A stretch of 64,000 nt of DNA from Candidatus Marinacidobacterales bacterium (lineage in GTDB: Bacteria > Acidobacteriota > Vicinamibacteria > Marinacidobacterales > SMYC01), in contig CBDCYI010000011.1 in assembly GCA_965224085.1 (NCBI GenBank), positions 1,248,001 through 1,312,000 of the forward strand. The letters are read 5' to 3'. Under the pieces are notes generated by a model, which made no database searches, was not told the origin of the DNA, and was given only the letters and a program-made list of their open reading frames with translations. Below, piece after piece: positions 14,342 to 53,576 of this stretch; position 1 is the first letter of the stretch, and every line of letters starts with the position of its first letter. The position numbers and the translations under genes are program-made.

Positions 14342-16343
14342 CCCATGTTTACCCTTTATGGGCACCCTAACGCTCGTAAGTGACTGAATTCAAAGGAACG
14401 GGGGTTGAATTTGCCCAAAACGTAGAGACAGATATTGTGCTTTGAGCGCCATTAATACGTTGTAATCGTGGACAATGATATGTAGTATGCGTGAGGACAG
14501 GTTATGTTCTTCCGCATCGTTCGGGCCGCAGGCGGCAAAGGGGTTCAACATGAGTATGTCCGCCTGGTCGAGTCGTATCGGGAGCACGGCAAGCCGAAGC
14601 AACGCGTAGTGTGCAACTTGGGGCGCAAGGATCTCCTAGTTGCCAATCTCGACTCCCTCAATCGGTTGCTTGGGGCCGGTGAACCGGCCGACACCGAGCG
14701 AGCAGCCGAGCAGATCGCGGGGGCAGACGCGTGGGATTGGGGTCCGATGGTGGTGACGGCGACGCTGTGGCGCGAGCTCGGACTGGAGCAGATTCTCGAC
14801 CGGCTCGGAGGCCGCGGCAAGCGCGACGGAGTGGCGCTAAGCGAGCGAGCTTTGGTGCTGGTCGCCAACCGGCTATGTGCTCCGTCAAGCGAGCACGGTC
14901 TGGCGCGCTGGCTCGAGACCGACTTCGTCTGCGACCGGCAGGGGCGGCGGTGGGTGCCGCAGTGGCGCGATGATGGGGAGCGGCGAGCGAGTCGCTCCCC
15001 GCGGGTTCGCGTGGAGTTTTGCCAACTCAAGCAATGGTACCGAACGCTCGACCAGCTGCATGCCCGCAAAGAACAGATCGAGAAAGAGCTGTTTTTGCGC
15101 TTGCGGGATCTGTTTTCGCTTGAGGTTGACATGGTGTTTTACGACCTGACGTCGACGTACTTCGAAGGTCAAGGCCCTCCGGGGCTCGGCGCCCACGGCT
15201 ACAGTCGCGACCGCAGACCGCGTAACCGGCAAGTGCTTGTCGGTCTGGTGATGGTGGACGGTTGGCCGATCGCCCACCATGTTTTCGCCGGCAACTGGCG
15301 TGACGCGAAAACGGTGCCGCAGGTGCTCAACGATCTCAACGAACGATTCGGTTTGCACCGCGTGGTTTTTGTCGGCGACCGAGGGATGGTAACGAGCGAC
15401 AGCCTGGCGGTGGTGCGCTCGCGCAAGCAGGGCTATCTCGTCGGGCTGCAAAGACGACGGCGCGAGGAGGTCTATCGTTACATCGAGCGCGCCAGCGGAG
15501 AGTGGATCGACTGCCCTGGTGGCATCACGGTGAGCGAAAAAGCCGAGCCACCTAAGACTCGTGTGCAAGAAGTCCGCTCCGAGCAGTCTGGCGTGCGCAT
15601 CTTCGTCGTTCACAGCGACGAAAGGCTCGCCTACGAGCGCGGGCAGAGGCTGCGGGCCATGGGACGTGCCCGTGCGGCATTCGAGGCCCTTGAGCGCCGC
15701 GTGCGCGAGGGACGATTGAAAGCCCCCGAGAAAATCGGTGCCGCCGCCGCGCGCATACAGGCACGCCACCACGGTCACCGTTACTACGACTGGGAGTACA
15801 AAAACGCTCGCTTCCGCTTCTTCGAGCACCCGGACAACCTCAAGCGCGAGCAAGCCTACGAGGGTAAGTACGTTATTCAAACCGAGGAGCAAAACCTCTC
15901 TCCGGTCGACGCCGTGCGCCTTTACAAGGACCTAAACGAGGTCGAGCGAGCCTTCTCATGCCTTAAGGATGTCATTGAGATGCGTCCCGTTTACCACCAG
16001 ACCGATGAGCGTGTGGAGGCACATCTTTTCGTAGCTACGCTGGCCTTCCTTGTGCATCGGGCTCTTGAGAAAAAGCTCAAGGTCGCCGAACTCGACCTGT
16101 CCGCAACCGAGGCACTACAAGCGCTACGCTCGGTCCGGCTCGTCGACTTACAGCTGGGTTCTGGGCGGACCAAGCGCGTCGTCACGCGCGGCACCGCTCG
16201 CGCCAACTCGATCCTGACTGCACTCGGAATCGTTGAACGCGACCCGCCAGCCTTCTCCGAGGAGGTGCTGTCAGCGTAGAGACAAACCGCGGATCTCAGT
16301 CCTTTGTTTATGATGACTTAGAGACCTAAAAGGGAAACATGGG
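14342..16343 (+). mobile_element. IS1634-family insertion sequence
   Basis: Terminal inverted repeats CCCATGTTTACCCTTT and AAAAGGGAAACATGGG, each flanked by CTAG. Confidence 0.85.
14504..16279 (+). CDS. IS1634-family DDE transposase
   Basis: YVRLVESYR...KQRVVCNLGR, FYDLTSTYFEG, GYSRD, FVGDRGM, VERAF...MRPVYH. Confidence 0.92.
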   Translation: MFFRIVRAAGGKGVQHEYVRLVESYREHGKPKQRVVCNLGRKDLLVANLDSLNRLLGAGEPADTERAAEQIAGADAWDWGPMVVTATLWRELGLEQILDRLGGRGKRDGVALSERALVLVANRLCAPSSEHGLARWLETDFVCDRQGRRWVPQWRDDGERRASRSPRVRVEFCQLKQWYRTLDQLHARKEQIEKELFLRLRDLFSLEVDMVFYDLTSTYFEGQGPPGLGAHGYSRDRRPRNRQVLVGLVMVDGWPIAHHVFAGNWRDAKTVPQVLNDLNERFGLHRVVFVGDRGMVTSDSLAVVRSRKQGYLVGLQRRRREEVYRYIERASGEWIDCPGGITVSEKAEPPKTRVQEVRSEQSGVRIFVVHSDERLAYERGQRLRAMGRARAAFEALERRVREGRLKAPEKIGAAAARIQARHHGHRYYDWEYKNARFRFFEHPDNLKREQAYEGKYVIQTEEQNLSPVDAVRLYKDLNEVERAFSCLKDVIEMRPVYHQTDERVEAHLFVATLAFLVHRALEKKLKVAELDLSATEALQALRSVRLVDLQLGSGRTKRVVTRGTARANSILTALGIVERDPPAFSEEVLSA

Positions 16344-16551: not shown

Positions 16552-19104
16552 TCAGCTCAGTGTCTGGGCGATACGCTCAACCGTCTCAGCGAGCGACTCG
16601 AGACGCGTTCGGTCCCGTCCGCTGGCCGACGCGCTCTCGCTCGAAAGCTCGGTCGCGATGGCCTCGAGCTTCCGGGCGGTTTCTGCGTCCTTCGACGCGC
16701 TCGTAAGCAGCTCGTCCGCACGGTCGAGAGCGGCCGTCAGCGCGTGGGAACGCGCCGCCGCGATGGCCTGACCGCGCTCGAGCTGATCCAGGTAGGCGCG
16801 CGCCACGGCCGGGTGGGCGGGCCAGTCGATGCGGCGCTGCTGCTGAGCGTTGAACACTTCCGGCGACACGAGCGCCGCGGCGTCGATCTCGTTCTGGGTG
16901 ACGTGCTCGCTCGGCAGCAGCTCGAGAACGTCGAGGCCACGCGAAATCTCGGTGCCGTAGATGAAGCCGTCGTACCAATACGCGGACCAGTAGCCACCCA
17001 TCACGAGCGCGTTGGGGTCGATCGGTCCGCGGTCGAAGAAGGCGATCTCGACCGGTCTCTCGGAGTCCGTGAAATCGAACACGGAGATCCCGCCCTGATA
17101 CCAAGCCTGGACCATGATGTCGCGCCCGGGAACGGGGATGAGAGAACCGTTGTGCGCGACGCAGTTCTCCTCCTTCGATTGTGGGGCCGGCAACTTGTAG
17201 TAGTTGCGGAACTGGAGCTTCCCGTCGACGATGTCGAAGATCGCATTCGCGCCCCAATTGTCGGGATCGAAGGCTCGGCATCGCGGACGTCCTCCTCCGC
17301 CCCACTCGTCCGTGAAGACGACCTTCGTCCCGTCGTTGTTGAACGTGGCAGAGTGCCAGTAGGCGAAGGCCGGGTCGACGACCTGGTCCAGACGGACGGG
17401 ATTCGCGGGATCGGAGATGTCGAGGAGGATGCCGTTTCCGGAGCAAGCGCCCGCGGCCAGACCCAGCTCGGGATACACGGTGATGTCGTGGCACTGGTTG
17501 GTCTGGCGGGATCGCTGTGTCTCCGGACCGTGATCCCCGCCCTTCCAAAGGCCGGCAATCGCGCCACTCTCGGGGTCGGCGAAGATTCGGGGCCGGCTGA
17601 CGACGCGCGCCTCCTCCGGCCGGTCTATGGGAACGCGGATGACGTCGATGCTGAAGAGTGCCGTGTTCGGGTCCTGATCGGCGTCGGTGCAGCCCTCGAG
17701 CTCTTCCTTCGGGCGGACCGAGCTCGTGCCCGAGTTGTAGACGTAGATGTTTCCCTCGTCGTCGGGGTCGCTCACCAGGGTGTGGGTGTGCGAGCCGCGG
17801 CAAGTCTGCACCGCGGCGACCTGCCTCGGCAATCGCAGGTTGCTGATGTCGAAGATGCGTACGCCGCGAAAGCGCTGCTCGCTCACCGGCTCCGCCACGC
17901 CCTGCGTCCCGCAGTCGAGCCGCGCACGCGTCTCCTGCACCGACATGAAAAGGAGATTTCCGTAGATGGAGACGTCGCCCTGACCGCCGGGACAGACAAT
18001 TGAAGCCAGGAGCTGCGGGGAGAGCGGATCCTCCACGTTGTACGCGTTGAACCCGTGATAGTTGCCCTCGATCACGACGCCCCTGGCGAAGGCCAGATCG
18101 GTGTTCGCGAAGTTGAGAATCCCGGGTCGAATCGAATCCTCCTCGTCCTCTTCGATTTCCGCTGGCATTTCTTCGCTCGTCTGCTCTGCTGCGCCCTCGG
18201 CCTCGGCGGCTTGCTCTGCCTGCTCCTGATTCTGTTCCTGGTTACGTTCCCGTTCACGCTCCTCTCTCCGCGCCCGGGCGCGCCTCTCCTCCTCGCTCTC
18301 TCTGGGGCGGCCCGCGGGAGCCTCGGGATCGTAGAAGCCGTCGGGCTTGGGGAGGGTGGCGACCAGCTCCAGATTCAGCACTGCGTCGCGGGCGCTGCGA
18401 AACCCGGCGGCGAGAGTCGCACGCGGATCGGGCGAGAATCCGGCGAGCATGGCATCCATCCGGTCGATCTCCATGGTCTGATCGGCCGTGATGTCGGACG
18501 TGAAAGCAAAGAGCTGGGAATCTTGCGCCGCGCCTCGCTCCGAGAGCAGCTCCTCCACCATGTCGAGCGCACCCTGGTGGTGCTTGATCATGTACCGCAG
18601 GAAAAGATCATCGAACTCCTCCCCGCGCGCCATCTCGAGTTCATTCAACTCCTCGGGCGTCAACATGCCGGGCATCAAGGTCGCGCCGTGGGCATGATGG
18701 GCATCTACGCTCGTCACCTCCAAGCTCCGCTCGCGAAGCCACTCTTGCATCATCCGGATCTCGTCTTCTTGGGAAAGCTCGATCCGCTTGCCGAGCTGTT
18801 GCATGGCCTCGCTGTTGCTCCGCGACGCGAGAAGCTCGGTCATCTCGAGAGCCTGGGCGTGATGGGAGATCATTCCCTGCATGAAGCGCACGTCGGCTTC
18901 GCTGAATTGCAGGCCGGCGAGGTTCGAGGCCTCTTCGGCGGAGATATTGCGACTCGGATCGCCGGGAGCGCCCGGCTGGACGATCGGCGGCTGTTCCTGA
19001 GCCTGGCTCTCCACCGCTCCGATCGGCAAGAGCGCCAAGATCAAATTGATGACGATGGCGGCCGGCGCCGCGAGCCGCCGGACAAAGGGTTCCTCGAGAC
19101 TCAT
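16552..19104 (-). CDS. Secreted DUF305 plus LVIVD-repeat protein
   Basis: DVRFMQGMISHHAQA and FLRYMIKHHQGA (DUF305); CPGGQGDVS, QTCRGSHTHT, CHDITV and YWHSATF; signal peptide. Confidence 0.88.
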   Translation of the reverse strand: MSLEEPFVRRLAAPAAIVINLILALLPIGAVESQAQEQPPIVQPGAPGDPSRNISAEEASNLAGLQFSEADVRFMQGMISHHAQALEMTELLASRSNSEAMQQLGKRIELSQEDEIRMMQEWLRERSLEVTSVDAHHAHGATLMPGMLTPEELNELEMARGEEFDDLFLRYMIKHHQGALDMVEELLSERGAAQDSQLFAFTSDITADQTMEIDRMDAMLAGFSPDPRATLAAGFRSARDAVLNLELVATLPKPDGFYDPEAPAGRPRESEEERRARARREERERERNQEQNQEQAEQAAEAEGAAEQTSEEMPAEIEEDEEDSIRPGILNFANTDLAFARGVVIEGNYHGFNAYNVEDPLSPQLLASIVCPGGQGDVSIYGNLLFMSVQETRARLDCGTQGVAEPVSEQRFRGVRIFDISNLRLPRQVAAVQTCRGSHTHTLVSDPDDEGNIYVYNSGTSSVRPKEELEGCTDADQDPNTALFSIDVIRVPIDRPEEARVVSRPRIFADPESGAIAGLWKGGDHGPETQRSRQTNQCHDITVYPELGLAAGACSGNGILLDISDPANPVRLDQVVDPAFAYWHSATFNNDGTKVVFTDEWGGGGRPRCRAFDPDNWGANAIFDIVDGKLQFRNYYKLPAPQSKEENCVAHNGSLIPVPGRDIMVQAWYQGGISVFDFTDSERPVEIAFFDRGPIDPNALVMGGYWSAYWYDGFIYGTEISRGLDVLELLPSEHVTQNEIDAAALVSPEVFNAQQQRRIDWPAHPAVARAYLDQLERGQAIAAARSHALTAALDRADELLTSASKDAETARKLEAIATELSSESASASGRDRTRLESLAETVERIAQTLS

Positions 19105-19169
19105 TCTGTGACCTCCGATCGATTCCCGCCCCAACGTTTTCGCGCCGTATTCTAATCCACGCCGCGAAT
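19090..19169 (+). repeat. About 80-bp direct repeat, copy 1 (promoter and start of the DUF305 gene)
   Basis: Aligns by eye to 21516-21594 with about 8 substitutions and 1 gap. Confidence 0.85.
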
Positions 19170-19524
19170 CCACGCACCCCAACCGCCGCGATGGACGCCG
19201 TGTCTCTTCGACGAAGCCGTCGCCCCAATCAATCCGCCCGCAAGGCGCGACTGGCTTCCAGGCTCGATGCTCGTCCAGCCGGGACGAGTGAGGTGATGAA
19301 GGCGTTTAAGGGAATGTCAGCGCTGCCTTCATCACGGAGCTCCTCCGGCGCACGACGTAGTTTCATCTCGAGCGAGATGGCGACGGGCGCCTGTCGTCCG
19401 ACGATATCGCGAGCGCGATCGACGAGATGCTCGTGAGCCAAAGCCGTCAGTTTCACCCGTAGCGGACCGGCGAGATTGTTGCCTGGCCGCAGAGCGTAGA
19501 AGTATGCTGCGGCCCGTCATCGCC

Positions 19525-22513: not shown

Positions 22514-22789
22514 TCAGCCGCGCCGAGCTTGGAGCCGAATGTACTCCCTCAAGGCTTCGTTGATGCGAGTCTGGTATTTGTCTCCACGAGCCTTGAACCA
22601 AGCAATGACGTCTTTGTCCAAACGTAGTGTGATTTGTTGCTTCACCGGCCGGTAGAACTTTCCGCGCTCACGGACCATGAACTCCTCGATCTCCGGGGCG
22701 TCGGGATCGCCAAGATCGATCGGTCGGTCTTTCAGCTTCTTCAGCTCCGCCCGCCCTTCTTCATCGAGATAGATAGAATCGTCTTTCAC
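22514..22789 (-). CDS. brnA: BrnA-family antitoxin
   Basis: FYRPVKQQITLRLDKDVIAWFKARGDKYQTRINEALREY. Confidence 0.88.
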   Translation of the reverse strand: MKDDSIYLDEEGRAELKKLKDRPIDLGDPDAPEIEEFMVRERGKFYRPVKQQITLRLDKDVIAWFKARGDKYQTRINEALREYIRLQARRG

Positions 22790-23044
22790 GCGGCGTCGCT
22801 TGCCTTGCGGATATGATACGGATGATTTCTTCGCCATCATCGTCCTCGCGGAACGAGTGAGCCACATAAAGGATCGCGACTCGACGCGCCCGATAGTCAC
22901 CCATCGCTCTTCACCGTAGTCGAACCGATCGTCCAGGTACGATAATACGCCGGGATCCCGGAACACGAGCGCAGCGTGCTCGAACCGGAGGCCGTGCTTC
23001 TCTCGATTCGATGCGTTCTTCTCCTCGTCCCATTCGAAGGCCAC
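22761..23044 (-). pseudogene. brnT: BrnT-family toxin with a 1-nt frameshift near 22877
   Basis: FEWDEEKNASNREKHGLRF...EERWVTIG, then in another frame ILYVAH...IIRIISARQATPRERRFY*. Confidence 0.85.
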
Positions 23045-23064
23045 AAGCCGACTACACTTAAGTA

Positions 23065-23093
23065 ATTCTACTATAGTAGTTACATAATTGCAA
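23065..23093 (-). promoter_or_regulatory. Sigma70 promoter of brnTA with overlapping palindromes
   Basis: TTGCAA-17-TAGAAT; palindromes CTACTATAGTAG and ATAATTGCAATTAT overlap it. Confidence 0.7.
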
Positions 23094-23491
23094 TTATACG
23101 TGCGTGAGCTGCTTTCGCCGCGAGCCAACCGGCAGCCAACGACGGAATTCAGCACAGGTGCCATGCGTCGCCGGCGAGCGCGGAAACTGGCTGGACACCA
23201 CCCCTGGCAGGGCGCGTGTCCTCCTGCAGGCGTCATTTGACACTATTGCGGACTCCCATCGGGGTGGCGGCGACCCGCGACCGTCGCTCACAATATCCGG
23301 CAATGAACAGGAGAAGATCCGACCAGCCGACCGTGTGCCCGTAACGATCACGCCGCGTCAACGAGACTTGATCACCGAGCATACGTTCGCGGAGCCAGAC
23401 TCGACGGAGCCGCTTCGGCGGGCGGTGGCGAAAGGCCGCAAGCTCGTCGTGAAGTTTCGTAGACGGGCGTTTAGGGCGCCTTGTGTGTGCA

Positions 23492-24259: not shown

Positions 24260-24508
24260 ATGTCTACTACGCTAAATCTTTCACTGACCGATGAGCTGCG
24301 CGCGTTCATCGACGCCAACTGCGGTGACGGCACGCTGTATGCCACACCCAGCGAATTCGTGCGCGATCTTCTGCGACAACGAAAGATTCAGCTAGATGCC
24401 GAGTCTGCTCGGGACGGTATCCTTGCGGGCTATCGCGACGCAGTTGACGGTCGCGTCGTTGAGTTCCGAGGTGACCTGCAGAGCCTTCTAGATAAAGCCG
24501 TACGGTGA
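24260..24508 (+). CDS. ParD-like RHH antitoxin
   Basis: LNLSLTDELRAFID...YATPSEFVRDLLR. Confidence 0.8.
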   Translation: MSTTLNLSLTDELRAFIDANCGDGTLYATPSEFVRDLLRQRKIQLDAESARDGILAGYRDAVDGRVVEFRGDLQSLLDKAVR

Positions 24509-24888
24509 GCCGGAAGCAAAAACGGCGCGGCCGGCTACATCTTGCAAAGAGAGCCATCTCTGACCTGCTTGAAATCGAGGCTTATTCCATCGAGCAATGG
24601 GGCAAACGAGCGGCCACCAAATATCTCAAGGAGATTGAGGTAGGCCTGCAACTCATCCGAGAAGATCCCGGCATACTGCGTCCGCTGGAAGGCTTGCCGG
24701 CACAGCTTCGTTTTTACCGCGTGAACAAGCATTTTCTCGTGTGTGATGCTGCACGTGAATCGACCGTCGTGCTGACCGTCATTCACGGAAGCATGGATCT
24801 TCCCAACCGTCTTGGGGAGCTCGTGCCGCAACTAGCAACTGAGGTCGCGATGCTGCGCGATCAGCTGGACTCCAGCCGCAGAAAGTGA
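24505..24888 (+). CDS. ParE-family toxin
   Basis: AISDLLEIEAYSIEQWGKRAATKY...VLTVIHGSMDL; GTGA overlap with the antitoxin. Confidence 0.85.
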   Translation: MSRKQKRRGRLHLAKRAISDLLEIEAYSIEQWGKRAATKYLKEIEVGLQLIREDPGILRPLEGLPAQLRFYRVNKHFLVCDAARESTVVLTVIHGSMDLPNRLGELVPQLATEVAMLRDQLDSSRRK

Positions 24889-25133: not shown

Positions 25134-25451
25134 TCAACTCTTCGGCCCAATTCTGGACGAGAACCAATTCGGTCGGCGGCCGTTGAAATACTCCATCCCA
25201 AGGGCTTCCACTTTGGGTTTTTCGTCGAGGCTTCCCTCTTGCTCCGTACGCAGGTTCAGCACAGCCTTGAATCCAGCCTTCTGAACGGCTTCGAGTGCCT
25301 CGTCGGTCGGTTGTCCCGCGGTAGCGATGTCGGGACGCAGCCGATAGTAGTTCGGGAGGCTCGACTGCTCCTCGAGCGGATCGGATTCTTGCGCGACGAG
25401 GAGGCTGGCCGCAAGGAGCGTCACGAGGGCGAGGACGGATCTTCCCATCAT
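25134..25451 (-). pseudogene. Secreted DUF442/PTP-like (Blh) protein truncated before its catalytic Cys and joined to a kinase-tail remnant
   Basis: IATAGQPT...GFKAVLNLRT...LGMEY; after about 25180 another frame reads ELVLVQNWAEELKRLFPTNN*, a kinase C-terminus. Confidence 0.7.
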
Positions 25452-26377
25452 AATTTGTCTAGAAAAGATTGCACGTTCTTGTGGAACAGAAACAACGCGT
25501 CGGCGTCGCCGCTTTGCTCGGTGAAGTTGTAGTTCTTGCCTTTGCGGACTTTCAAATTCATATTCTTGTTGATGTAGTCCACTTCGAAGCGCTCGAGCGA
25601 CCCGTATGGAATGGCAAAGGAGTCTTTGTGATCCGTTGCGTAACGAATGCCGTTCGCGTCCGCGATCAATACTCCCTTGCAATTGCCGAAGCTGTGCTTG
25701 TGGACCATGGGGATGGATTCGTTGAAATCGGCGACCGCTTGCTGGAAGTCGACCCGCACATTGCGATGGCCGGCGGTGATCGTAACCTTCTCCGCGTACA
25801 TCTCGTAGCCCTCGGCGGAAACAGTCAACTGATACTCCCCCGCGGTCACGCCTTTGATCGTGATGGGCGTCGTTCCTTTGTATCGCCGGTCGAGAAACAC
25901 CGTAGCGCCAGGGATATCGCTTTGAACGCTCAAGCTCGGCGGCAGCAAGTCGAGCGACGCTCGCATCTCGGCTTTGCGTCCGGGACGCACGCGCACGTCC
26001 TCGACGAAATCCTCGTAACCTTCTTTAGTCACACGGACGCTGTACATGCCGATATGGATCTCAGCGTTCTCGAAGGGCGCGGAGCCGACGAGCTCGCCGT
26101 CGACATACACTGAGGCGGCATCGACGTTCGCGGTCACGACCAGCGCTCCGAAGGCTGGGAGGTCTGCCTTCCTTTCCTTCGGAGGCGGCGGCGGAGGGTC
26201 TTCATCCTCGACCACGGGCGGCGGCGCCTCGACGACTTCGGGCTCGGGGGAAGGCTCAGAGCTGCGGTTCAGGAACCAATAGACTCCCCCCATGGCCATG
26301 AGGATCACGATCGAAAGGGCGAGCAACTTCCCTGCGCCTGATGTCGATTCGCTATCGTCTGAATGCAGAAAACTCAC
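25448..26377 (-). CDS. Membrane-anchored PEGA-domain protein
   Basis: TM segment, Pro-rich linker, two PEGA repeats (ASVYVDGELVGSAP; GATVFLDRRYKGTTP). Confidence 0.85.
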   Translation of the reverse strand: MSFLHSDDSESTSGAGKLLALSIVILMAMGGVYWFLNRSSEPSPEPEVVEAPPPVVEDEDPPPPPPKERKADLPAFGALVVTANVDAASVYVDGELVGSAPFENAEIHIGMYSVRVTKEGYEDFVEDVRVRPGRKAEMRASLDLLPPSLSVQSDIPGATVFLDRRYKGTTPITIKGVTAGEYQLTVSAEGYEMYAEKVTITAGHRNVRVDFQQAVADFNESIPMVHKHSFGNCKGVLIADANGIRYATDHKDSFAIPYGSLERFEVDYINKNMNLKVRKGKNYNFTEQSGDADALFLFHKNVQSFLDKL

Positions 26378-26415: not shown

Positions 26416-26924
26416 TCAGCCCGGACGTCCACTGACGACGAAACGGCAGCAGTCGTCCCCTTTTGCCATACACTGTACTTCCATACCGTCCGTCTCTTTG
26501 TCGAATAGTGTCATGGCAGCGCCCTGAAGAAATCCAAGCACGGTGTAGCAGATGGGCTGCGTGGACGGGCCGTAGACTTCCGCGAAAGGCGAGCCAACAA
26601 CCTTGAACACGACCTCTTGGTTCTCGAGGTTGACCATCTCCGTCGACATTCCCCCCACCCCGACTGGGTCAGCATGTAGCTGACCGCATGCGCGACTTGT
26701 TCCGTCGAGTAGTTGAAGGCGTCGCGGTAACGACTCGCTAGCGAAGCACCGTCACCGAACGCCGTTTGGGTCATGATCTCGACGACTTCCTGGGGGAGAT
26801 GGGCTTCGATCTTTTTTTGGAGCTCGACGACGAGCGTTGGCGACATCATCACGTAGCGGGCACTCTGAAGCGACAGCGCTCCGTGCTCGGGATGGAAAGT
26901 AAGATTGCCAAGAAGCTGGTTCAC
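26416..26924 (-). pseudogene. V4R (4-vinyl reductase) domain protein, frameshifted in a homopolymer near 26655
   Basis: SGWG...SPFA...PICY...G...EVQCMAKGDDCCRF split over two frames. Confidence 0.8.
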
Positions 26925-26930
26925 TCGGAC

Positions 26931-27401
26931 TCACCTGCTGTGAACGGTCTCGCCAAGCCCCCAATACTCGCGAGTACAAAAGACCAAAGGCCTACCTTCA
27001 TCTCCCATTTCCGCACGTTCGACCCCTCCGAAAAAGACGGTGTGATCTCCCTGCTCCGTTTGCTCTACGACTCTGCAGTGCAAGTAGCCAAGGCAGCCGT
27101 CGAGCTTGGGCGACGTGTACGCCGCGAACTGATCCTCAGAGCTGAGCTTGGGACTCGCGAAATGGTCGGAGACGGCGCCTTGCTTCTCCGATAATACGTT
27201 CACGACGAACGGCCCTTTGGCGATGGCGCTCAGGGCGCGGGATTCCTTCATGATACAGATCAGGATGCGCGGCGGCGTCAAACTGACCGACGTAAACGAG
27301 CTCACCGTGATTCCCCGCGGGCCTTCGTCTCCTTGGGCGGTGACGACTACGACCCCTTGCGGGAAGGCGCGCATCACGTCGCGAAGCGAAATCTCACTCA
27401 T
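26931..27401 (-). CDS. Flavin reductase-like protein (HpaC/RutF fold)
   Basis: LRDVMRAFPQGVVVVT, GITVSSFTSVSLTPP, GDHTVFFG. Confidence 0.9.
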   Translation of the reverse strand: MSEISLRDVMRAFPQGVVVVTAQGDEGPRGITVSSFTSVSLTPPRILICIMKESRALSAIAKGPFVVNVLSEKQGAVSDHFASPKLSSEDQFAAYTSPKLDGCLGYLHCRVVEQTEQGDHTVFFGGVERAEMGDEGRPLVFCTREYWGLGETVHSR

Positions 27402-27419
27402 GGTGGTTTTCCTCAGTCC

Positions 27420-27884
27420 TCATTCTTCTTCGAAATCTGCTGACCACTCGATGCCAATGCATCCTTTGACGCTCATCGCTGCGGGACAGCCCCGTTCGTG
27501 CACGTCGAGAGCTCGCTCTGCCTCCGCCTTTTTCCCGCGCGGAAGCCGGATTCGATAATGTACACGCATACGGGTAATCTTGATGACGCCATCGAAGTCC
27601 TCGATGTCGCCCTCGACGTCTGCGGACAGCTTATCCGGGTGGCTTGGAATACCGCGCACTTCCAGCGCGCGCCCTAAGGTCCCCGTCAGTCACCCGCCGA
27701 CAGCGCCCACGATGTAATCGAGGGTCGCCGGAAACTCTTCCTCAGGTTCGATCCCGTAGAACTCTTTGATCCCGGAATGAACCCCGAAATGCACCGGGGC
27801 CTCGAACCCTTCGATATAGGCCCTGCGATGCGGTCCCTTGTCTTTCTCGATGCGTACTCGCGATGTATGAACGATTTTGGGCAT
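27420..27884 (-). CDS. OsmC-like selenoprotein (UGA read as Sec at 27690-27692)
   Basis: ORFs 27690..27884 and 27420..27659 are in frame: LDYIVGAVGG-U-LTGTL...GCPAAMSV; hairpin GCGCGCT-GGA-AGTGCGC follows the UGA. Confidence 0.85.
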
Positions 27885-27887
27885 GGC

Positions 27888-28334
27888 TCAGCTACTCACG
27901 TAAATGTAATCCCGCATAATGTTCGTCTCGTCGAAATAGATGAAATAGATCATGTCCCCCGCGGCGTAAAGCCGCAATTGGGGCCATTGCCGCGCCTTGC
28001 CGATAATCTCTTCCGCGCGCTCGGACGCCCAGGTCGAGACGGCACGTTCGAGATCTTGCTTCGACTCCACGATGGCGGCCAACGGAGCCTTTTCCTTTAG
28101 CCCTTCCGTGACTTGGTAGACGGTCGGGGTTTGCACGAGCATCCGCCGTAGCCGCGTGTCGTGTAGGTTCCTGCGACGGATATCGTAGCCGAGCTTCCCG
28201 AGATATAGCGCCGTGCCAAGCCCTCCGATGGTGACGGCAGCCGCGACGGCGAGAGCAATGGCAACACGTTTGGGTGGGCTCGACTCCCGCTTTTCGAACG
28301 CGGGTAACCGAAATTCCGGATTGGCCATTTCCAT
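27888..28334 (-). CDS. Hypothetical single-TM protein
   Basis: 148-aa ORF ending 3 nt before the OsmC-like start. Confidence 0.6.
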   Translation of the reverse strand: MEMANPEFRLPAFEKRESSPPKRVAIALAVAAAVTIGGLGTALYLGKLGYDIRRRNLHDTRLRRMLVQTPTVYQVTEGLKEKAPLAAIVESKQDLERAVSTWASERAEEIIGKARQWPQLRLYAAGDMIYFIYFDETNIMRDYIYVSS

Positions 28335-28416
28335 ATTTTTAACGGTTTAGGCCTAGATAGATAAAGTAGTACTTCACGTAGGTTGAGCAATCACTTGAAG
28401 AGCGGGGCGTAATCGC

Positions 28417-28950
28417 CTATTGAGGCTCGAAAATTTCAGGATAGAGCTTTTCAACCTCGGCGCCTGGTGCCGCTGACTTCAAATCAAGCTCGATCTCTTC
28501 CGACGCGGGGGCGCTGCAGGCGAAGTCTGTGCAGATTTGATAGCTCACGTCCGCCCGTATCGATTGCTCCCCGGTCACCGCATCCGCTGAAAGCGTAACG
28601 GGAATGCGTATCGCCACGCTACCTTCATACAAGTCGTAGGTTCCGAGGCCCGACAAGTCGCGCGTGACCGCAAGTGGAAAGGACGGCTCCCCGACTACGA
28701 CGTTGTCGCCCGTCACAGCCACCTCGGTGCGGCTTGGTTCCGGTTCTTCAGGACCGTAGAGGTGGTAGCCCTCTTCGATATCCACGACGACGGCGACCTC
28801 GAACCCGTCACCGGGTCGGATCGGTTGTTGGGACGCGACGAGCTCGAATTTGACCGAGCCGTCCCAATCCGGAATCTCGAACTGGTGACCCACGGCAACG
28901 CCGGCGCCGAGCGCCAGCACTAGGGTCACGAACATCTGTCTTTTGTTCAT
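28417..28950 (-). CDS. Secreted stand-alone DsbD N-terminal (nDsbD-like) domain protein
   Basis: Signal peptide, IEEGYHLYG, YQICTDFACSAP dithiol; ATGA overlap with the upstream gene. Confidence 0.8.
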   Translation of the reverse strand: MNKRQMFVTLVLALGAGVAVGHQFEIPDWDGSVKFELVASQQPIRPGDGFEVAVVVDIEEGYHLYGPEEPEPSRTEVAVTGDNVVVGEPSFPLAVTRDLSGLGTYDLYEGSVAIRIPVTLSADAVTGEQSIRADVSYQICTDFACSAPASEEIELDLKSAAPGAEVEKLYPEIFEPQ

Positions 28951-29486
28951 TCGAGTTTCTTCAGCTCCTCGATAATGGTCGTGGGTGGCGTACGCTCTCG
29001 AAAGTTGACCCAAACGTTGACGAAGCGTACGATGCCCGCGTTGTCAACGATGATAGTGGCAGGATGTGGGATTCCCTTCATCGACTCGCGGCTGACGTCC
29101 GGGTTCAAAAGCCCGTAGGCCTCTATGGCTGACGCTCCGTCACACAGGATGGGATACGACCAATCGTGTTCCTCGAGCCAGCTTGCCGTCTCTGCCGCGT
29201 CGTATTTGGAAATGGCGAGAACGATCGCGCCTGCGTTTTCTATCGCCGTTTCGGACTCTTGCAACTCACCGAGCTGCTTCTTGCAAAACGGTCACCAATC
29301 ACCGCTGCGGAAAAACTCGAGGACGATAGCTTTGTCATCGCGATAGCTCGAAAGCGTGTACGTCTTGCCGGCAGAGTCTTTGAGTGTGAAATCCGGAGCA
29401 GATTTCCCGACCGCGACACTCGTTTGCGCGCCAGCGAACGACAGGACGAACACTAACACTAAGATTGATTTACAAAGAATTTTCAT
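28947..29486 (-). CDS. Secreted AhpC/TSA (Prx/TlpA-like) selenoprotein with UxxC (UGA at 29292-29294)
   Basis: Signal peptide, APDFTLKD...LEFFRSGDW-U-PFCKKQLGELQ...PHPATIIVD; hairpin GCAGCTC-GGT-GAGTTGC after the UGA. Confidence 0.9.
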
Positions 29487-29536
29487 GGTGCTGCTGTGCA
29501 CTATAGCACAGCGAACACTAGCTTTGGTGTGAAGCT

Positions 29537-29820
29537 TTACACTTCCTGAGCGCCACGCAAGTAGCCAGCGATGCGACTCAGAAGACCAACCTCGGAGGCC
29601 TCGTCGGCCGACGGATCCGAAACGAGTCCGTTAGATGGACCGCACGATTGCTCGTACGAGGCTTGCAGGTCGGTGATCACTTCTTGAGGATTCAGACCCA
29701 GCGAACGCGCATATTCTTTCGTGAAACTCTGGAAGTAGAACTCGCCGGGGAAACGGTCGAAGCGTTCTTCCTCGAGATCCTCGAGGTACATCATGCCGAT
29801 GCGGGTTTCGTTCGCGATGC
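29537..29820 (-). pseudogene. RodZ-like HTH protein whose 5' end is interrupted by the 44-bp repeat
   Basis: IANETRIGMMYLEDLEEERFDRFPGEFYFQSFTKEYARSLGL; upstream frame hits TAA inside the repeat. Confidence 0.7.
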
Positions 29821-48178: not shown

Positions 48179-50298
<2,120 letters not shown>

Positions 50299-51769: not shown

Positions 51770-52803
51770 TTACGACCTCGCCATCGAACTGAGCCCGTTC
51801 TTGGCGACGAGGTCACGGTAGAGAAGTCGGTGTCCGACAAGCCGAGCGACGGTGTCGAGCATTTGGTCGAGAGTTCCTAGGTCGCGGATGTTGTGCTTCT
51901 CAGCGAACTCATTAACGTAGCGTTGTAAGTGCTTGGGGCTCATCTTGTGGAACGTCCCCTTGTGCGCCCGCTTGAGCATCGACCAGAAGCTCTCAATCCC
52001 GTTGGTGTGCGCCATTCCGTTGACGTACTCTTTGACGCTGTGCTTCACCGTCTCGTGATTGGGTAGACCGACATAGCCTCTGTGGTCGTCGGTGTAGAGC
52101 TTCGCGCTAGGATCGACATTCTTCGCGACGAAGCCTTGGAGCGTCGGTTGGTCGGTGTTGCCGATGACCTCGGCGCTGACACGGTTCGTCCGGCGGTCCT
52201 TCGCGCGATGACGGCCGTCTTCCCTGCGGATCCTCGGCCCTTAATAGCCTGCTCGCGCTTGTGGGCGTGCTGCATGTTGCGAGCCTTCCCGCCGAAGAAG
52301 GTTTCGTCTACCTCGACAGGCCCGGCGAACGATTTGCCGTTAGGACCGCTCCACGCTTCTCGAATCCGATGGAGCATGAACCAAGCCGCGGCCTGTGAGA
52401 CGCCGATGTCTCGGTGGAGCTTCATGCTCGAGACGCCTTTGAGACTAGTCAAGCAGAGGTAGATGGCGATAACCCATTTGCGGAGCGCGATCTTAGAATG
52501 GGCAATAGGGGTGCCCGTGCGAACGCTGAAGTAGCTCCGGCAGGTGGAGCACCAGTAGGGCATCGGCTTTTCGTTCGGGACTTCGCTGGTGCTGAGGCTA
52601 CCGCAATGTCCGCAGCACCGAGTGCCATGCCAGATTGCAGCCTCGAACCATTTGGTTGCCGCTTCATCGGTCGGGAACATGTCCATGAGCTGAACAACGG
52701 TTATGCCTTCCCGGTGCCCTCGCCCTGGGGAGTTGTATCGCGTCATCATGATCGTAGAATACACGATCACGGGCGCCTTGTCAAGCGTTTCTTATAGTTC
52801 CCC
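51770..52803 (-). mobile_element. IS1595-family (ISXO2-like) element with frameshifted transposase; one end visible
   Basis: CCGHC...CSTC zinc ribbon, KGVSSMKLHRD, VEVDETF, HTNGIESFWS, LQRYVNEF; end GGGGAACTATA at 52803; TTGACA-17-TATTCT promoter. Confidence 0.85.
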
Positions 52804-52805
52804 TT

Positions 52806-53576
52806 CGTTGGGCCGAGGACAAGCTTGGTGTCCCCGTCATCGACCACTGGTGGCAAACCGAGTCGGGCTGGCCGATGGTGGCAAACTGTCTCGGCATGGG
52901 CCCCCATTCCGTCAAGGCGGGCTCACCAACGAAACCGGTGCCCGGGTACGACGTGCGCGTTCTCGATGACGGCGGACGCGCGCTCAGCGATGGCGAGATG
53001 GGGAATCTCGTCGTCAAGCTACCCCTCCCACCCGGATGCCTACCAACCCTGTGGAACCATGACGCGGCGTTTCAAGAGAAGTACACGGATCCCTTTCCCG
53101 GCTACTACCTCACCGCCGATGCCGGCTACCGGGACGAAGACGGCTATTGGTGGATCATGAGTCGCACCGACGACGTTATCAACGTCGCGGGGCACCGCTT
53201 GTCAACGGGACAAATCGAGGAAGTGCTCGCCTCCCACGAGGACGTCGCGGAATGCGCGGTGCTCGGGGTCGCGGACGATCTGAAGGGCCAGCTCCCTTTG
53301 GGCATCGTCGTGCTCAAAGCAGGCGTCTCCCGGAGTGAAGAGGCCATCGTACCCGAGCTCGTCGCCCTCGTCCGCAACGCCATCGGCCCGGTCGCCGCGT
53401 TCAAACAGGCCGCGGTCGTCGCGAGACTTCCCAAAACGCGATCGGGAAAAGTGCTCCGGGGCACCGTGCAAAAAATGGCGGATGGCGACGACTACAAGAT
53501 GCCCGCGACGATCGACGACCCAAAAATCCTAGACGAGATCCGGCAGGATCTCGACAGGCTCGGCTACCCGAAATAG
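52806..53576 (+). pseudogene. prpE: Propionyl-CoA synthetase C-terminal remnant, cut at the IS1595 end
   Basis: LGVPVIDHWWQTESGW, KLPLPPG, RTDDVINVAGHRLSTG, LPKTRSGK, PATIDDP. Confidence 0.85.

Follow-up and report, generated by a model that had tools for sequence, protein, structure and literature searches.

Two probable selenoprotein genes in two neighbouring gene pairs of an acidobacterial genome

Introduction

When two neighbouring redox genes are each interrupted by an in-frame TGA, are the genes broken or are the codons read as selenocysteine (Sec), and do the two genes belong to a single system? The question is raised by a 64,000-nucleotide stretch of the genome of Candidatus Marinacidobacterales bacterium (contig CBDCYI010000011.1, positions 1,248,001 to 1,312,000 of the forward strand; hereafter the window), in which a cluster of minus-strand genes encodes, among others, a peroxiredoxin-like (Prx-like) protein, a protein resembling the N-terminal domain of DsbD (nDsbD-like), an OsmC-fold protein and a flavin reductase (Table 1). 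The initial annotation proposed that the Prx-like and OsmC genes encode two hidden selenoproteins and that, with their neighbours, they may form one selenium-based module for peroxide or sulfur detoxification. The analysis presented here points, with a probability of about 0.8, to two genuine selenoprotein genes that lie in two separate two-gene units and are not parts of one machine.

Both kinds of protein are already known as selenoproteins, and the finding is in that sense real and mostly ordinary. Prx-like (UxxC) and OsmC-like (UxxT) selenoproteins are both present in the 2005 Sargasso Sea catalogue of Zhang, Fomenko and Gladyshev (PMC1088965), in which the 'Prx-like' UxxC family was defined by Sec replacing the Thr of the peroxiredoxin TxxC motif, and both are listed in the table of a 2026 review (PMC13188914), much as the initial annotation had stated. 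The available text of that review also gives examples of co-located selenoprotein genes, namely Prx with SelW-like and Prx-like with AhpD-like, and in that text Prx-like with OsmC is not among them (PMC13188914). Acidobacteria are included in the Sec users listed in the available part of a further study (PMC1794560).

Results

Both in-frame TGA codons are very probably read as selenocysteine

Reading through the TGA gives the Prx-like gene a product of 179 or 184 residues, depending on whether translation starts at ATG 29486 or at the upstream GTG 29501, which is also open. The active site then reads FFRSGDW-U-PFCKKQ, with the Sec residue at U65 or U70, respectively. PF00578 assigns the protein to the AhpC/TSA fold (101.6 bits against a cut-off of 26; 3.9e-29), and its nearest solved relative is AhpE of M. 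tuberculosis (1.7e-13), with which the U aligns at the Thr and the C at the peroxidatic Cys of TxxC. Read-through of the OsmC gene gives a protein of 154 residues without a signal peptide, containing GAVGG-U-LTGTLG and a second Cys within HERGCPAA (U65 and C133). It is recognised by PF02566 (46.1 bits against a cut-off of 27.5; 6.7e-12) and is 12–18% identical to solved OsmC/Ohr members. The predicted model, which has a predicted local distance difference test score (pLDDT) of 97.4, gives OsmC/Ohr proteins as its top fold matches (2onf, template modelling (TM) scores 0.79/0.86), and U65 and C133 align with both conserved Cys residues of T. thermophilus OsmC (1ukk). The alignments with AhpE and with T. 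thermophilus OsmC thus place each UGA at the redox position of its family, as the initial annotation had it.

Relatives of the OsmC protein were sought over one genome per GTDB species, giving 422, and the best 80 loci (L001–L080) were fetched with their flanks. Across these 80 loci the phyla represented are Acidobacteriota, Methylomirabilota, Bacillota, Armatimonadota, Nitrospinota, Gemmatimonadota and others. Five lines of evidence, namely truncated relatives, conservation of the codon, Cys homologues, selection and RNA structure, lead to the reading of the TGAs as Sec codons. On this comparative evidence both are very probably Sec codons, at which Sec would be inserted.

The nearest 11 of 41 database matches to the Prx-like protein (54–99% identical) are C-terminal pieces of 101–107 residues that start just past the TGA. 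Similarly, 72 of the 79 database relatives of OsmC are C-terminal pieces of 86–96 residues, and two are N-terminal pieces ending in VGG or VAG. Pieces of 89–107 residues carry NCBI/JGI names such as 'OsmC family protein', 'redoxin domain-containing protein' and 'peroxiredoxin'. At the level of the DNA, a single in-frame TGA stands at the OsmC Sec codon in 80/80 loci, and W-U-P-[FY]-C is encoded with TGA in all 19 Prx-like homologues in the fetched loci that cover the active site. The second Cys of OsmC is kept in 79/80 loci (L023 is frameshifted near the end). The OsmC clade has the motif G-U-[LM]-[TVLC]-[GA]-[TN], where position +3 is Gly in 79/80 loci and Ala in L078, and the N-terminus of its members is extended by about 50 conserved residues. 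Cultured Bacillota of the genera Salirhabdus, Melghirimyces, Marinithermofilum, Peribacillus and Mesobacillus (L057, L058, L060, L066 and L076) share the OsmC gene with its in-frame TGA.

Alternation between UGA and Cys is seen in both families. A Cys form of the Prx-like protein exists (P0012, 184 residues, SADWCPFC), and three Prx-like database entries show W at the Sec site. For OsmC, the full-length entries among the 79 matches include two with W at the Sec site and one with Cys (P0051). An exhaustive search of 1.84 billion representatives gave 665 matches at E<=1e-3; among the best 150 of these, 149 sequences were surveyed, of which 62 are full length, and Cys occupies the U column in 48/62 and both redox positions in 43/62.

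The initial annotation also held that the two genes, split in the list of open reading frames (ORFs), are continuous when UGA is read, and the pattern of substitution agrees with single conserved frames constrained on both sides of the TGA. Between the window Prx-like gene and that of L002, synonymous and non-synonymous substitutions number 16 and 9 upstream of the TGA and 43 and 33 downstream, and between the window OsmC gene and that of L001 they number 19 and 2 upstream and 18 and 2 downstream. A scan of the window for TGA codons flanked by coding-like sequence, which was non-exhaustive in that it missed 29292, returned 14 sites, with a redox motif only at 27690.

A conserved hairpin follows each UGA

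A candidate Sec insertion sequence (SECIS) was taken to be a stem-loop shortly 3' of the UGA with a G in the apical loop, as in bSECISearch. Both genes have such a structure, with apical loops of GGU/GGC (Prx-like) and (U)GGA(R) (OsmC) starting 24–29 nt after the U of the UGA. In the window, the Prx-like hairpin has its stem at nt 18–24/28–34 after the U of the UGA and the loop GGU; the 60-nt fold has an energy of -18.0 kcal/mol (z -2.78), equalled by 1/200 shuffles. Across 14 distinct sequences the 7-bp stem and a GGY loop are retained and all 98 cells pair (100%). Pair 21/31 is G-C in eight, A-U in five and G-U in one, a compensatory change at one of the seven pairs, and none of 500 shuffles reached the covariation score. 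Distant Methylomirabilota Prx-like genes have a hairpin of different sequence at the same place.

The OsmC hairpin of the window (stem nt 22–29/33–40, loop GGA) folds with -23.3 kcal/mol (z -1.27), and is convincing only through comparison with homologues. Across 75 distinct sequences a stem at nt 23–28/34–39 with the loop UGGAR is shared, in which 94.2% of 450 cells pair. Switches occur between G-C, A-U and G-U at pair 27/35 and once from C-G to U-A at pair 26/36, eight cells being altered on both sides, and the observed score was reached by 0/500 shuffles. Third-codon-position entropy is 0.57–0.90 bits in the stem versus 1.22–1.86 outside it. The low-GC Bacillota stems preserve GCG-CUG-GAR-GCG-CGY, and the OsmC genes of the cultured low-G+C Bacillota keep the hairpin GCGCUGGARGCGCG. 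The hairpin with a G-starting loop that the initial annotation saw shortly after each UGA is therefore conserved, with compensatory changes, in homologues of both genes.

Gene order favours two pairs over one module

To what extent do the two selenoprotein genes travel together? Neighbourhoods were counted by tblastn of the window proteins against the 80 OsmC loci, and neighbouring genes in relatives were identified from ORF calls filtered by third-codon-position G+C content (GC-rich DNA yields antisense ORFs in naive calling) together with Pfam. It can be seen that a Prx-like gene (46–82% identical) is present in 16 loci, an nDsbD-like gene in 18, a flavin reductase adjoining OsmC in 17, a V4R gene in 7 and a PEGA gene in 13. 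The Prx-like and nDsbD-like genes are adjacent in 16 loci, and OsmC and flavin reductase in 17. All loci in these counts come from Vicinamibacteria-type or unclassified Acidobacteriota metagenome-assembled genomes (MAGs).

A single co-evolved selenium module for peroxide or sulfur detoxification, made up of the Sec-containing Prx-like protein, the nDsbD-like protein, the 148-residue protein encoded between the pairs, Sec-OsmC, flavin reductase and V4R and working in both periplasm and cytoplasm, would account for several features of the locus. All of the genes lie on the same strand with short gaps and no terminator-like site above chance between them, the Prx-nDsbD-OsmC block recurs in 16/80 loci, and an intact DUF442/PTP-like gene is found after the block (behind the PEGA gene) in L009 and before OsmC in L005. 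In addition, a second phylum again places the two families side by side, since a UxxC Prx-like selenoprotein gene adjoins Sec-OsmC in four Methylomirabilota/Rokubacteria loci (L021, L064, L065 and L067).

However, the 16 loci come from one acidobacterial lineage in which housekeeping genes are collinear too. In the annotated loci L002, L009 and L014, the BFN nuclease-parA-parB genes are found in all three, the helix-turn-helix (HTH) gene in L002 and L009, and miaB in L014 only, and common descent thus suffices to explain the shared neighbourhood. Moreover, the nDsbD-like gene is immediately followed by a tRNA-Asn gene in L004 (5414–5488), L008 (732–806), L009 (6679–6753) and L013 (3766–3840), while the window has no tRNA at this site; in these four related genomes the tRNA gene delimits the Prx-nDsbD pair from the OsmC pair. 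In L009 and L013 unrelated genes (KH, BON) set the pairs 3.3–6.3 kb apart, and in L005 and L010, which belong to the same order or family, OsmC stands alone. Among 25 sampled loci of other lineages, mostly other phyla, the flanks of Sec-OsmC are unrelated (transporters, regulators, hydrolases) with no constant neighbour, and the only hints of redox function among them are one nitroreductase gene and, in two instances, a gene for a DUF255 thioredoxin-like protein. The Rokubacterial Prx-like protein is 30–33% identical and has no signal peptide, and its gene is divergent in 3/4 loci and stands behind a TetR gene in L065. Of the other proposed members, the 148-residue protein gene is present in only four of the 80 loci (L001, L002, L003 and L023), V4R is frameshifted in the window and DUF442 is a remnant, and the two selenoproteins are predicted to occupy different compartments.

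With co-occurrence in 16/80 loci of a single lineage, a tRNA-Asn gene or 3.3–6.3 kb between the pairs and no constant neighbour elsewhere, the case for the integrated module of the initial annotation is weakened and we regard it as unlikely. Its expectation of synteny across Acidobacteriota held in part: the block recurs in Vicinamibacteria-type Acidobacteriota, while OsmC is alone in L005 and L010, and two of the 25 sampled loci, both from Vicinamibacterales/Vicinamibacteraceae MAGs, lack the block.

Other redox genes were observed close to Sec-OsmC in individual relatives. DUF255 thioredoxin-like genes lie directly downstream of it in L005 (10506–12071, plus strand) and L010 (10506–12017, plus strand), and a CMD/AhpD-like protein is encoded near it in L014 (12741–13235, plus strand).

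The Prx-like gene is coupled to a stand-alone nDsbD-like gene

In keeping with the initial annotation, which described a signal-peptide-bearing UxxC gene coupled through ATGA to a gene for a secreted nDsbD-like dithiol protein, the stop codon of the Prx-like gene and the start codon of the nDsbD-like gene overlap as ATGA at 28947–28950. For both proteins, signal peptides were judged by eye from the N-terminal sequence. The Prx-like N-terminus, MKILCKSILVLVFVLSFAGA/Q, is hydrophobic and ends in AGA/Q, and the N-termini of its homologues are comparable; the nDsbD-like protein starts with MNKRQMFVTLVLALGAGVAVG/H, and hydrophobic N-termini recur in the homologues. Both proteins are accordingly predicted to be exported.

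PF11412 identifies the nDsbD-like protein (50.6 bits against a cut-off of 25; 2.4e-13). A plain sequence search against the PDB gave no match; the predicted model (pLDDT 88.5) has nDsbD of E. coli and Neisseria as its top 13 PDB fold matches, with TM scores by target of 0.54–0.75. The motifs YQxCTDxACSAP and GYHLYGPEE are invariant, and the Cys pair within the first (CTDxAC), which may correspond to Cys103/Cys109 of E. coli DsbD, is invariant in 19/19 and in 27/27 sequences. Stand-alone relatives of about 177 residues number at least 120 (164–212 residues, the search being confined to near lengths), one of which is named 'DsbD N-terminal domain-containing protein' by NCBI.

Other readings of the TGA codons

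Several observations weigh against two Sec-based pairs. The family scan of the window, which covered 54+32 ORFs of at least 90 residues each, found no selA, selB or selD and no DsbD/CcdA membrane domain. The latter is what the initial annotation had stated of a membrane DsbD, and it bears on the electron source of the Prx-nDsbD pair. A tRNA search found no tRNA in the 64-kb window and no tRNA-Sec in L001–L060, and Rfam gave no SECIS or relevant family, either in the window at the gathering threshold or in a permissive scan of 27300–29600. Judged from the window sequence alone, the OsmC hairpin does not exceed chance (20/200 shuffles were as good), double changes fall in only two of its six stem pairs because the stem varies little, and about ten L011-type marine sequences break the drawn stem at two pairs (11 unpaired cells each) and have a shifted hairpin instead. 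As for the pairs, the link between flavin reductase and OsmC is confined to one lineage, export was judged by eye from the N-terminal sequences, and the nDsbD-like gene is kept without a Prx-like gene, directly after the HTH gene, in L003 (3196–4002) and L023 (8691–9478), which indicates that the nDsbD-like protein can exist without its Prx-like partner.

Decoding of the UGAs as Cys or Trp, whether near-cognate read-through or a suppressor or selC-like tRNA-Cys is responsible, would fit the lack of Sec machinery among the scanned ORFs and tRNAs of the window. In the available text of one study, tRNA-Sec-like Cys tRNAs are reported in bacteria and unusual suppressor-type tRNAs in Acidobacteria (PMC5389517), and W is present at the site in database entries P0016–18, P0044, P0045 and P0125, although these are probably the output of gene callers using code 4. 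The same text, however, places the selC*-type Cys tRNAs in anaerobic Firmicutes, Thermodesulfobacteria, Nitrospirae and Proteobacteria and not in Acidobacteria (PMC5389517). The TGA is kept in 80/80 loci over many phyla even though a single-base change would give Cys, which speaks against Cys as the residue inserted, and the conserved downstream hairpin is a signature of SelB-dependent decoding. TGA is, moreover, the commonest stop in the window. We therefore consider non-Sec decoding to be very improbable. Genome-wide reassignment of UGA was likewise considered and rejected, since TGA terminates 16 of the 28 family-supported window genes and is thus not reassigned in the organism.

That the genes are simply broken, as pseudogenes, through assembly errors or as two real short ORFs each, finds some footing. 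At least one gene of the window, V4R, probably contains an indel error or is a pseudogene, the DnaE2-like and acyl-CoA ligase genes are truncated and the IS1595 transposase gene is split, and public records list the pieces of the two selenoprotein genes as separate proteins. This reading is nevertheless refuted for practical purposes. Error cannot explain a TGA that recurs at one codon in 80/80 and 19/19 independent genomes, the changes to either side of it are predominantly synonymous, the stop sits exactly on the catalytic residue, and the N-terminal pieces by themselves lack the fold.

Layout of the cluster and other features of the window

The features of the cluster are collected in Table 1. 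The window has a G+C content of 60%, and a promoter and terminator scan found nothing above chance within the cluster. The order of OsmC, flavin reductase and V4R given in the initial annotation stands (PF01613, 3e-39; V4R, 1.1e-16), with the V4R gene frameshifted.

Table 1. Positions of the genes and hairpins of the cluster within the window.
Feature	Position	Strand	Remarks
HTH_25/RodZ-like gene	~29818..29537	minus	
Prx-like (AhpC/TSA fold) gene, predicted selenoprotein	29486..28947	minus	PF00578; in-frame TGA 29292-29294; stop TGA 28947-28949
SECIS-like hairpin, Prx-like gene	29261..29277	minus	GCAGCUC-GGU-GAGUUGC, 17 nt after U of UGA
nDsbD-like gene (DsbD_N), 177 aa	28950..28417	minus	PF11412; start overlaps Prx-like stop as ATGA
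148-aa protein, one predicted membrane helix	28334..27888	minus	ends 3 nt before OsmC start
OsmC-fold gene, 154 aa, predicted selenoprotein	27884..27420	minus	PF02566; in-frame TGA 27690-27692; stop TGA 27420-27422
SECIS-like hairpin core, OsmC gene	27654..27670	minus	GCGCGC-UGGAA-GUGCGC, nt 23-39 after U of UGA
Flavin reductase-like gene, 156 aa	27401..26931	minus	PF01613; 18-nt gap after OsmC
XylR_N/V4R small-ligand-binding protein gene	26924..26416	minus	frameshifted
PEGA-domain protein gene	26377..25448	minus	
DUF442/PTP-like remnant	25182-25439	minus	N-terminal half only

The flavin reductase scores 135 bits with PF01613 (cut-off 27). Its NCBIfam matches are of the HpaC/StyB type, every one below cut-off, and no equivalog cut-off was reached. 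In L002 and L014 its longest called ORF, taken from the first start after the preceding stop, overlaps the OsmC frame. The V4R gene is intact (169 residues) in L001, L002 and L009. In the window it forms two ORFs, since in comparison with L001 and L002 a base is lacking between 26650 and 26651, immediately past a G6 run (26650–26656); the assembly may contain a homopolymer-type error here, or the gene may recently have become a pseudogene. The DUF442 remnant named in the initial annotation is indeed one, in that it matches only the N-terminal half of an intact 175-residue homologue (L009) and the half with the conserved Cys loop is gone; a ParD/ParE-like toxin-antitoxin pair (24260–24888, plus strand) lies just beyond the break. 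The 148-residue protein matched no Pfam or NCBIfam family, and its best Atlas lead (0.82) was not usable. Its gene shares one frame with OsmC, flavin reductase and the first V4R ORF, the four being parted only by single TGA stops (26931, 27420 and 27888, minus strand), which is probably a coincidence.

Elsewhere in the window, several genes that look split or truncated, along with an intact IS1634 transposase gene, are found at 48218–49996, 52875–53576 and 14504–16279 on the plus strand and at 51770–52770 on the minus strand. A DnaE2-type error-prone polymerase ORF covers only positions 337–896 of a 1047-position profile, an acyl-CoA ligase is present as a 233-residue C-terminal piece, and an IS1595 transposase is split into two ORFs. 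A single 240-residue ORF at 22514–23236 (minus strand) contains both BrnT toxin and BrnA antitoxin domains; BrnT and BrnA are usually encoded by separate genes, and the ORF is possibly a fusion or has a miscalled start. At 16552–19182 (minus strand), beside K+ transport genes, is encoded an 876-residue protein with DUF305/CopM-like metallochaperone repeats and a choice-of-anchor B domain.

Discussion

On the reading of the locus as two separate pairs, each UGA would be decoded as Sec through a coding-sequence hairpin 17–22 nt downstream, and the two selenoproteins are predicted to act in different compartments. The first unit would consist of an exported peroxiredoxin-fold oxidoreductase with a thioredoxin-like W-U-P-F-C centre, in which Sec would hold the attacking N-terminal position, and of a translationally coupled and likewise exported stand-alone nDsbD-like protein of immunoglobulin fold with an invariant CxxxxC. 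By analogy with nDsbD and its TlpA-, CcmG- and DsbC-type partners, the two may carry out selenenylsulfide/disulfide exchange in the cell envelope, drawing electrons ultimately from a membrane transporter of the CcdA/DsbD type that would be encoded elsewhere. The second unit would contain a cytoplasmic OsmC with Sec65 at the first, peroxide-attacking Cys position and Cys133 as the resolving residue, which, judging from the OsmC/Ohr family, most likely reduces organic or other hydroperoxides by way of a selenenic acid and then a selenenylsulfide. The flavin reductase, probably co-transcribed with OsmC in this lineage, might speculatively recycle OsmC or share its substrate, a suggestion drawn from their adjacency in one lineage.

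How do these proteins compare with known systems? The window clade was set beside the published Prx-like UxxC family by motif and description, and on this basis it resembles that family in its AhpC/TSA fold, in Sec standing for the Thr of TxxC, in the existence of Cys homologues and in a SECIS-like hairpin just downstream. It differs in its predicted export and in that, within one acidobacterial lineage, a stand-alone nDsbD-like gene always accompanies it. No NCBIfam selenoprotein model reached its cut-off, the SelL-related one giving 43.8 bits against 120.

The OsmC protein is similarly close to the OsmC-like selenoproteins (COG1765/PF02566; NF041052, 'OsmC-related (seleno)protein') in its fold, in the placing of Sec where the first catalytic Cys would stand, in a resolving Cys that is part of CP, and in the common occurrence of Cys homologues. 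In contrast to them, its clade has Gly at +3, and so not UxxT, and the N-terminal extension of about 50 residues, and the window protein, with 16.9 bits, falls below the NF041052 cut-off of 95 (bits being given for this protein only); the best E-value among 40 family members is 9.6e-07. With the OsmC/Ohr hydroperoxide reductases it shares the fold and the positions of the two redox residues, but it has Sec for the peroxidatic Cys and a flavin reductase as its neighbour. Ohr/OsmC proteins are recognised as being reduced by lipoyl-protein systems.

For the first unit the closest parallels are E. coli DsbD, in which nDsbD serves DsbC, DsbG and CcmG, and ScsB. In Caulobacter, the available text of one study describes an envelope reductive route from ScsB through TlpA to PprX and from ScsB to PrxL, the last being a 'peroxiredoxin-like' protein that is likewise exported, has an unknown role and is encoded next to its electron donor (PMC3322552). 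As in those systems, a dithiol protein of nDsbD fold here adjoins a predicted exported partner of thioredoxin/peroxiredoxin fold with two redox residues. Unlike DsbD and ScsB, the nDsbD-like protein is a stand-alone protein of 177 residues with no membrane or C-terminal thioredoxin domain attached, and none found among the ORFs scanned within 64 kb, its Cys pair is CxxxxC, and its partner would use Sec.

A literature search, with subscription journals and supplements outside its scope, found no account of the OsmC clade motif, of Sec-OsmC next to flavin reductase, or of stand-alone nDsbD paired with a Prx-like protein of the UxxC type. A stronger claim of novelty, that the OsmC clade is uncatalogued and near-obligately Sec-containing with flavin reductase as a new type of donor in the Vicinamibacteria-type lineage, and that a selenol/thiol relay in the envelope, without a fused DsbD, is formed by orphan nDsbD together with the exported UxxC protein, is tentative and rather unlikely. 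If it is true, an uncatalogued Sec-OsmC clade (G-U-[LM]-[TV]-G-[TN]) would exist in hundreds of species of at least eight phyla, including cultured aerobic Bacillota, annotated as fragments.

Neither gene pair alters in kind what is known of selenoproteins. Sec-OsmC with flavin reductase and the UxxC protein, predicted to be exported, with its orphan nDsbD offer leads on how peroxide and disulfide reduction may be powered. Both families are routinely halved in public annotation, and a profile for the OsmC clade would mend hundreds of records and would extend the list of Sec users by lineages such as Vicinamibacteria and part of the aerobic Bacillota. One point worth following is this OsmC clade itself, which is widespread, probably contains Sec in nearly all cases and escapes current annotation models.

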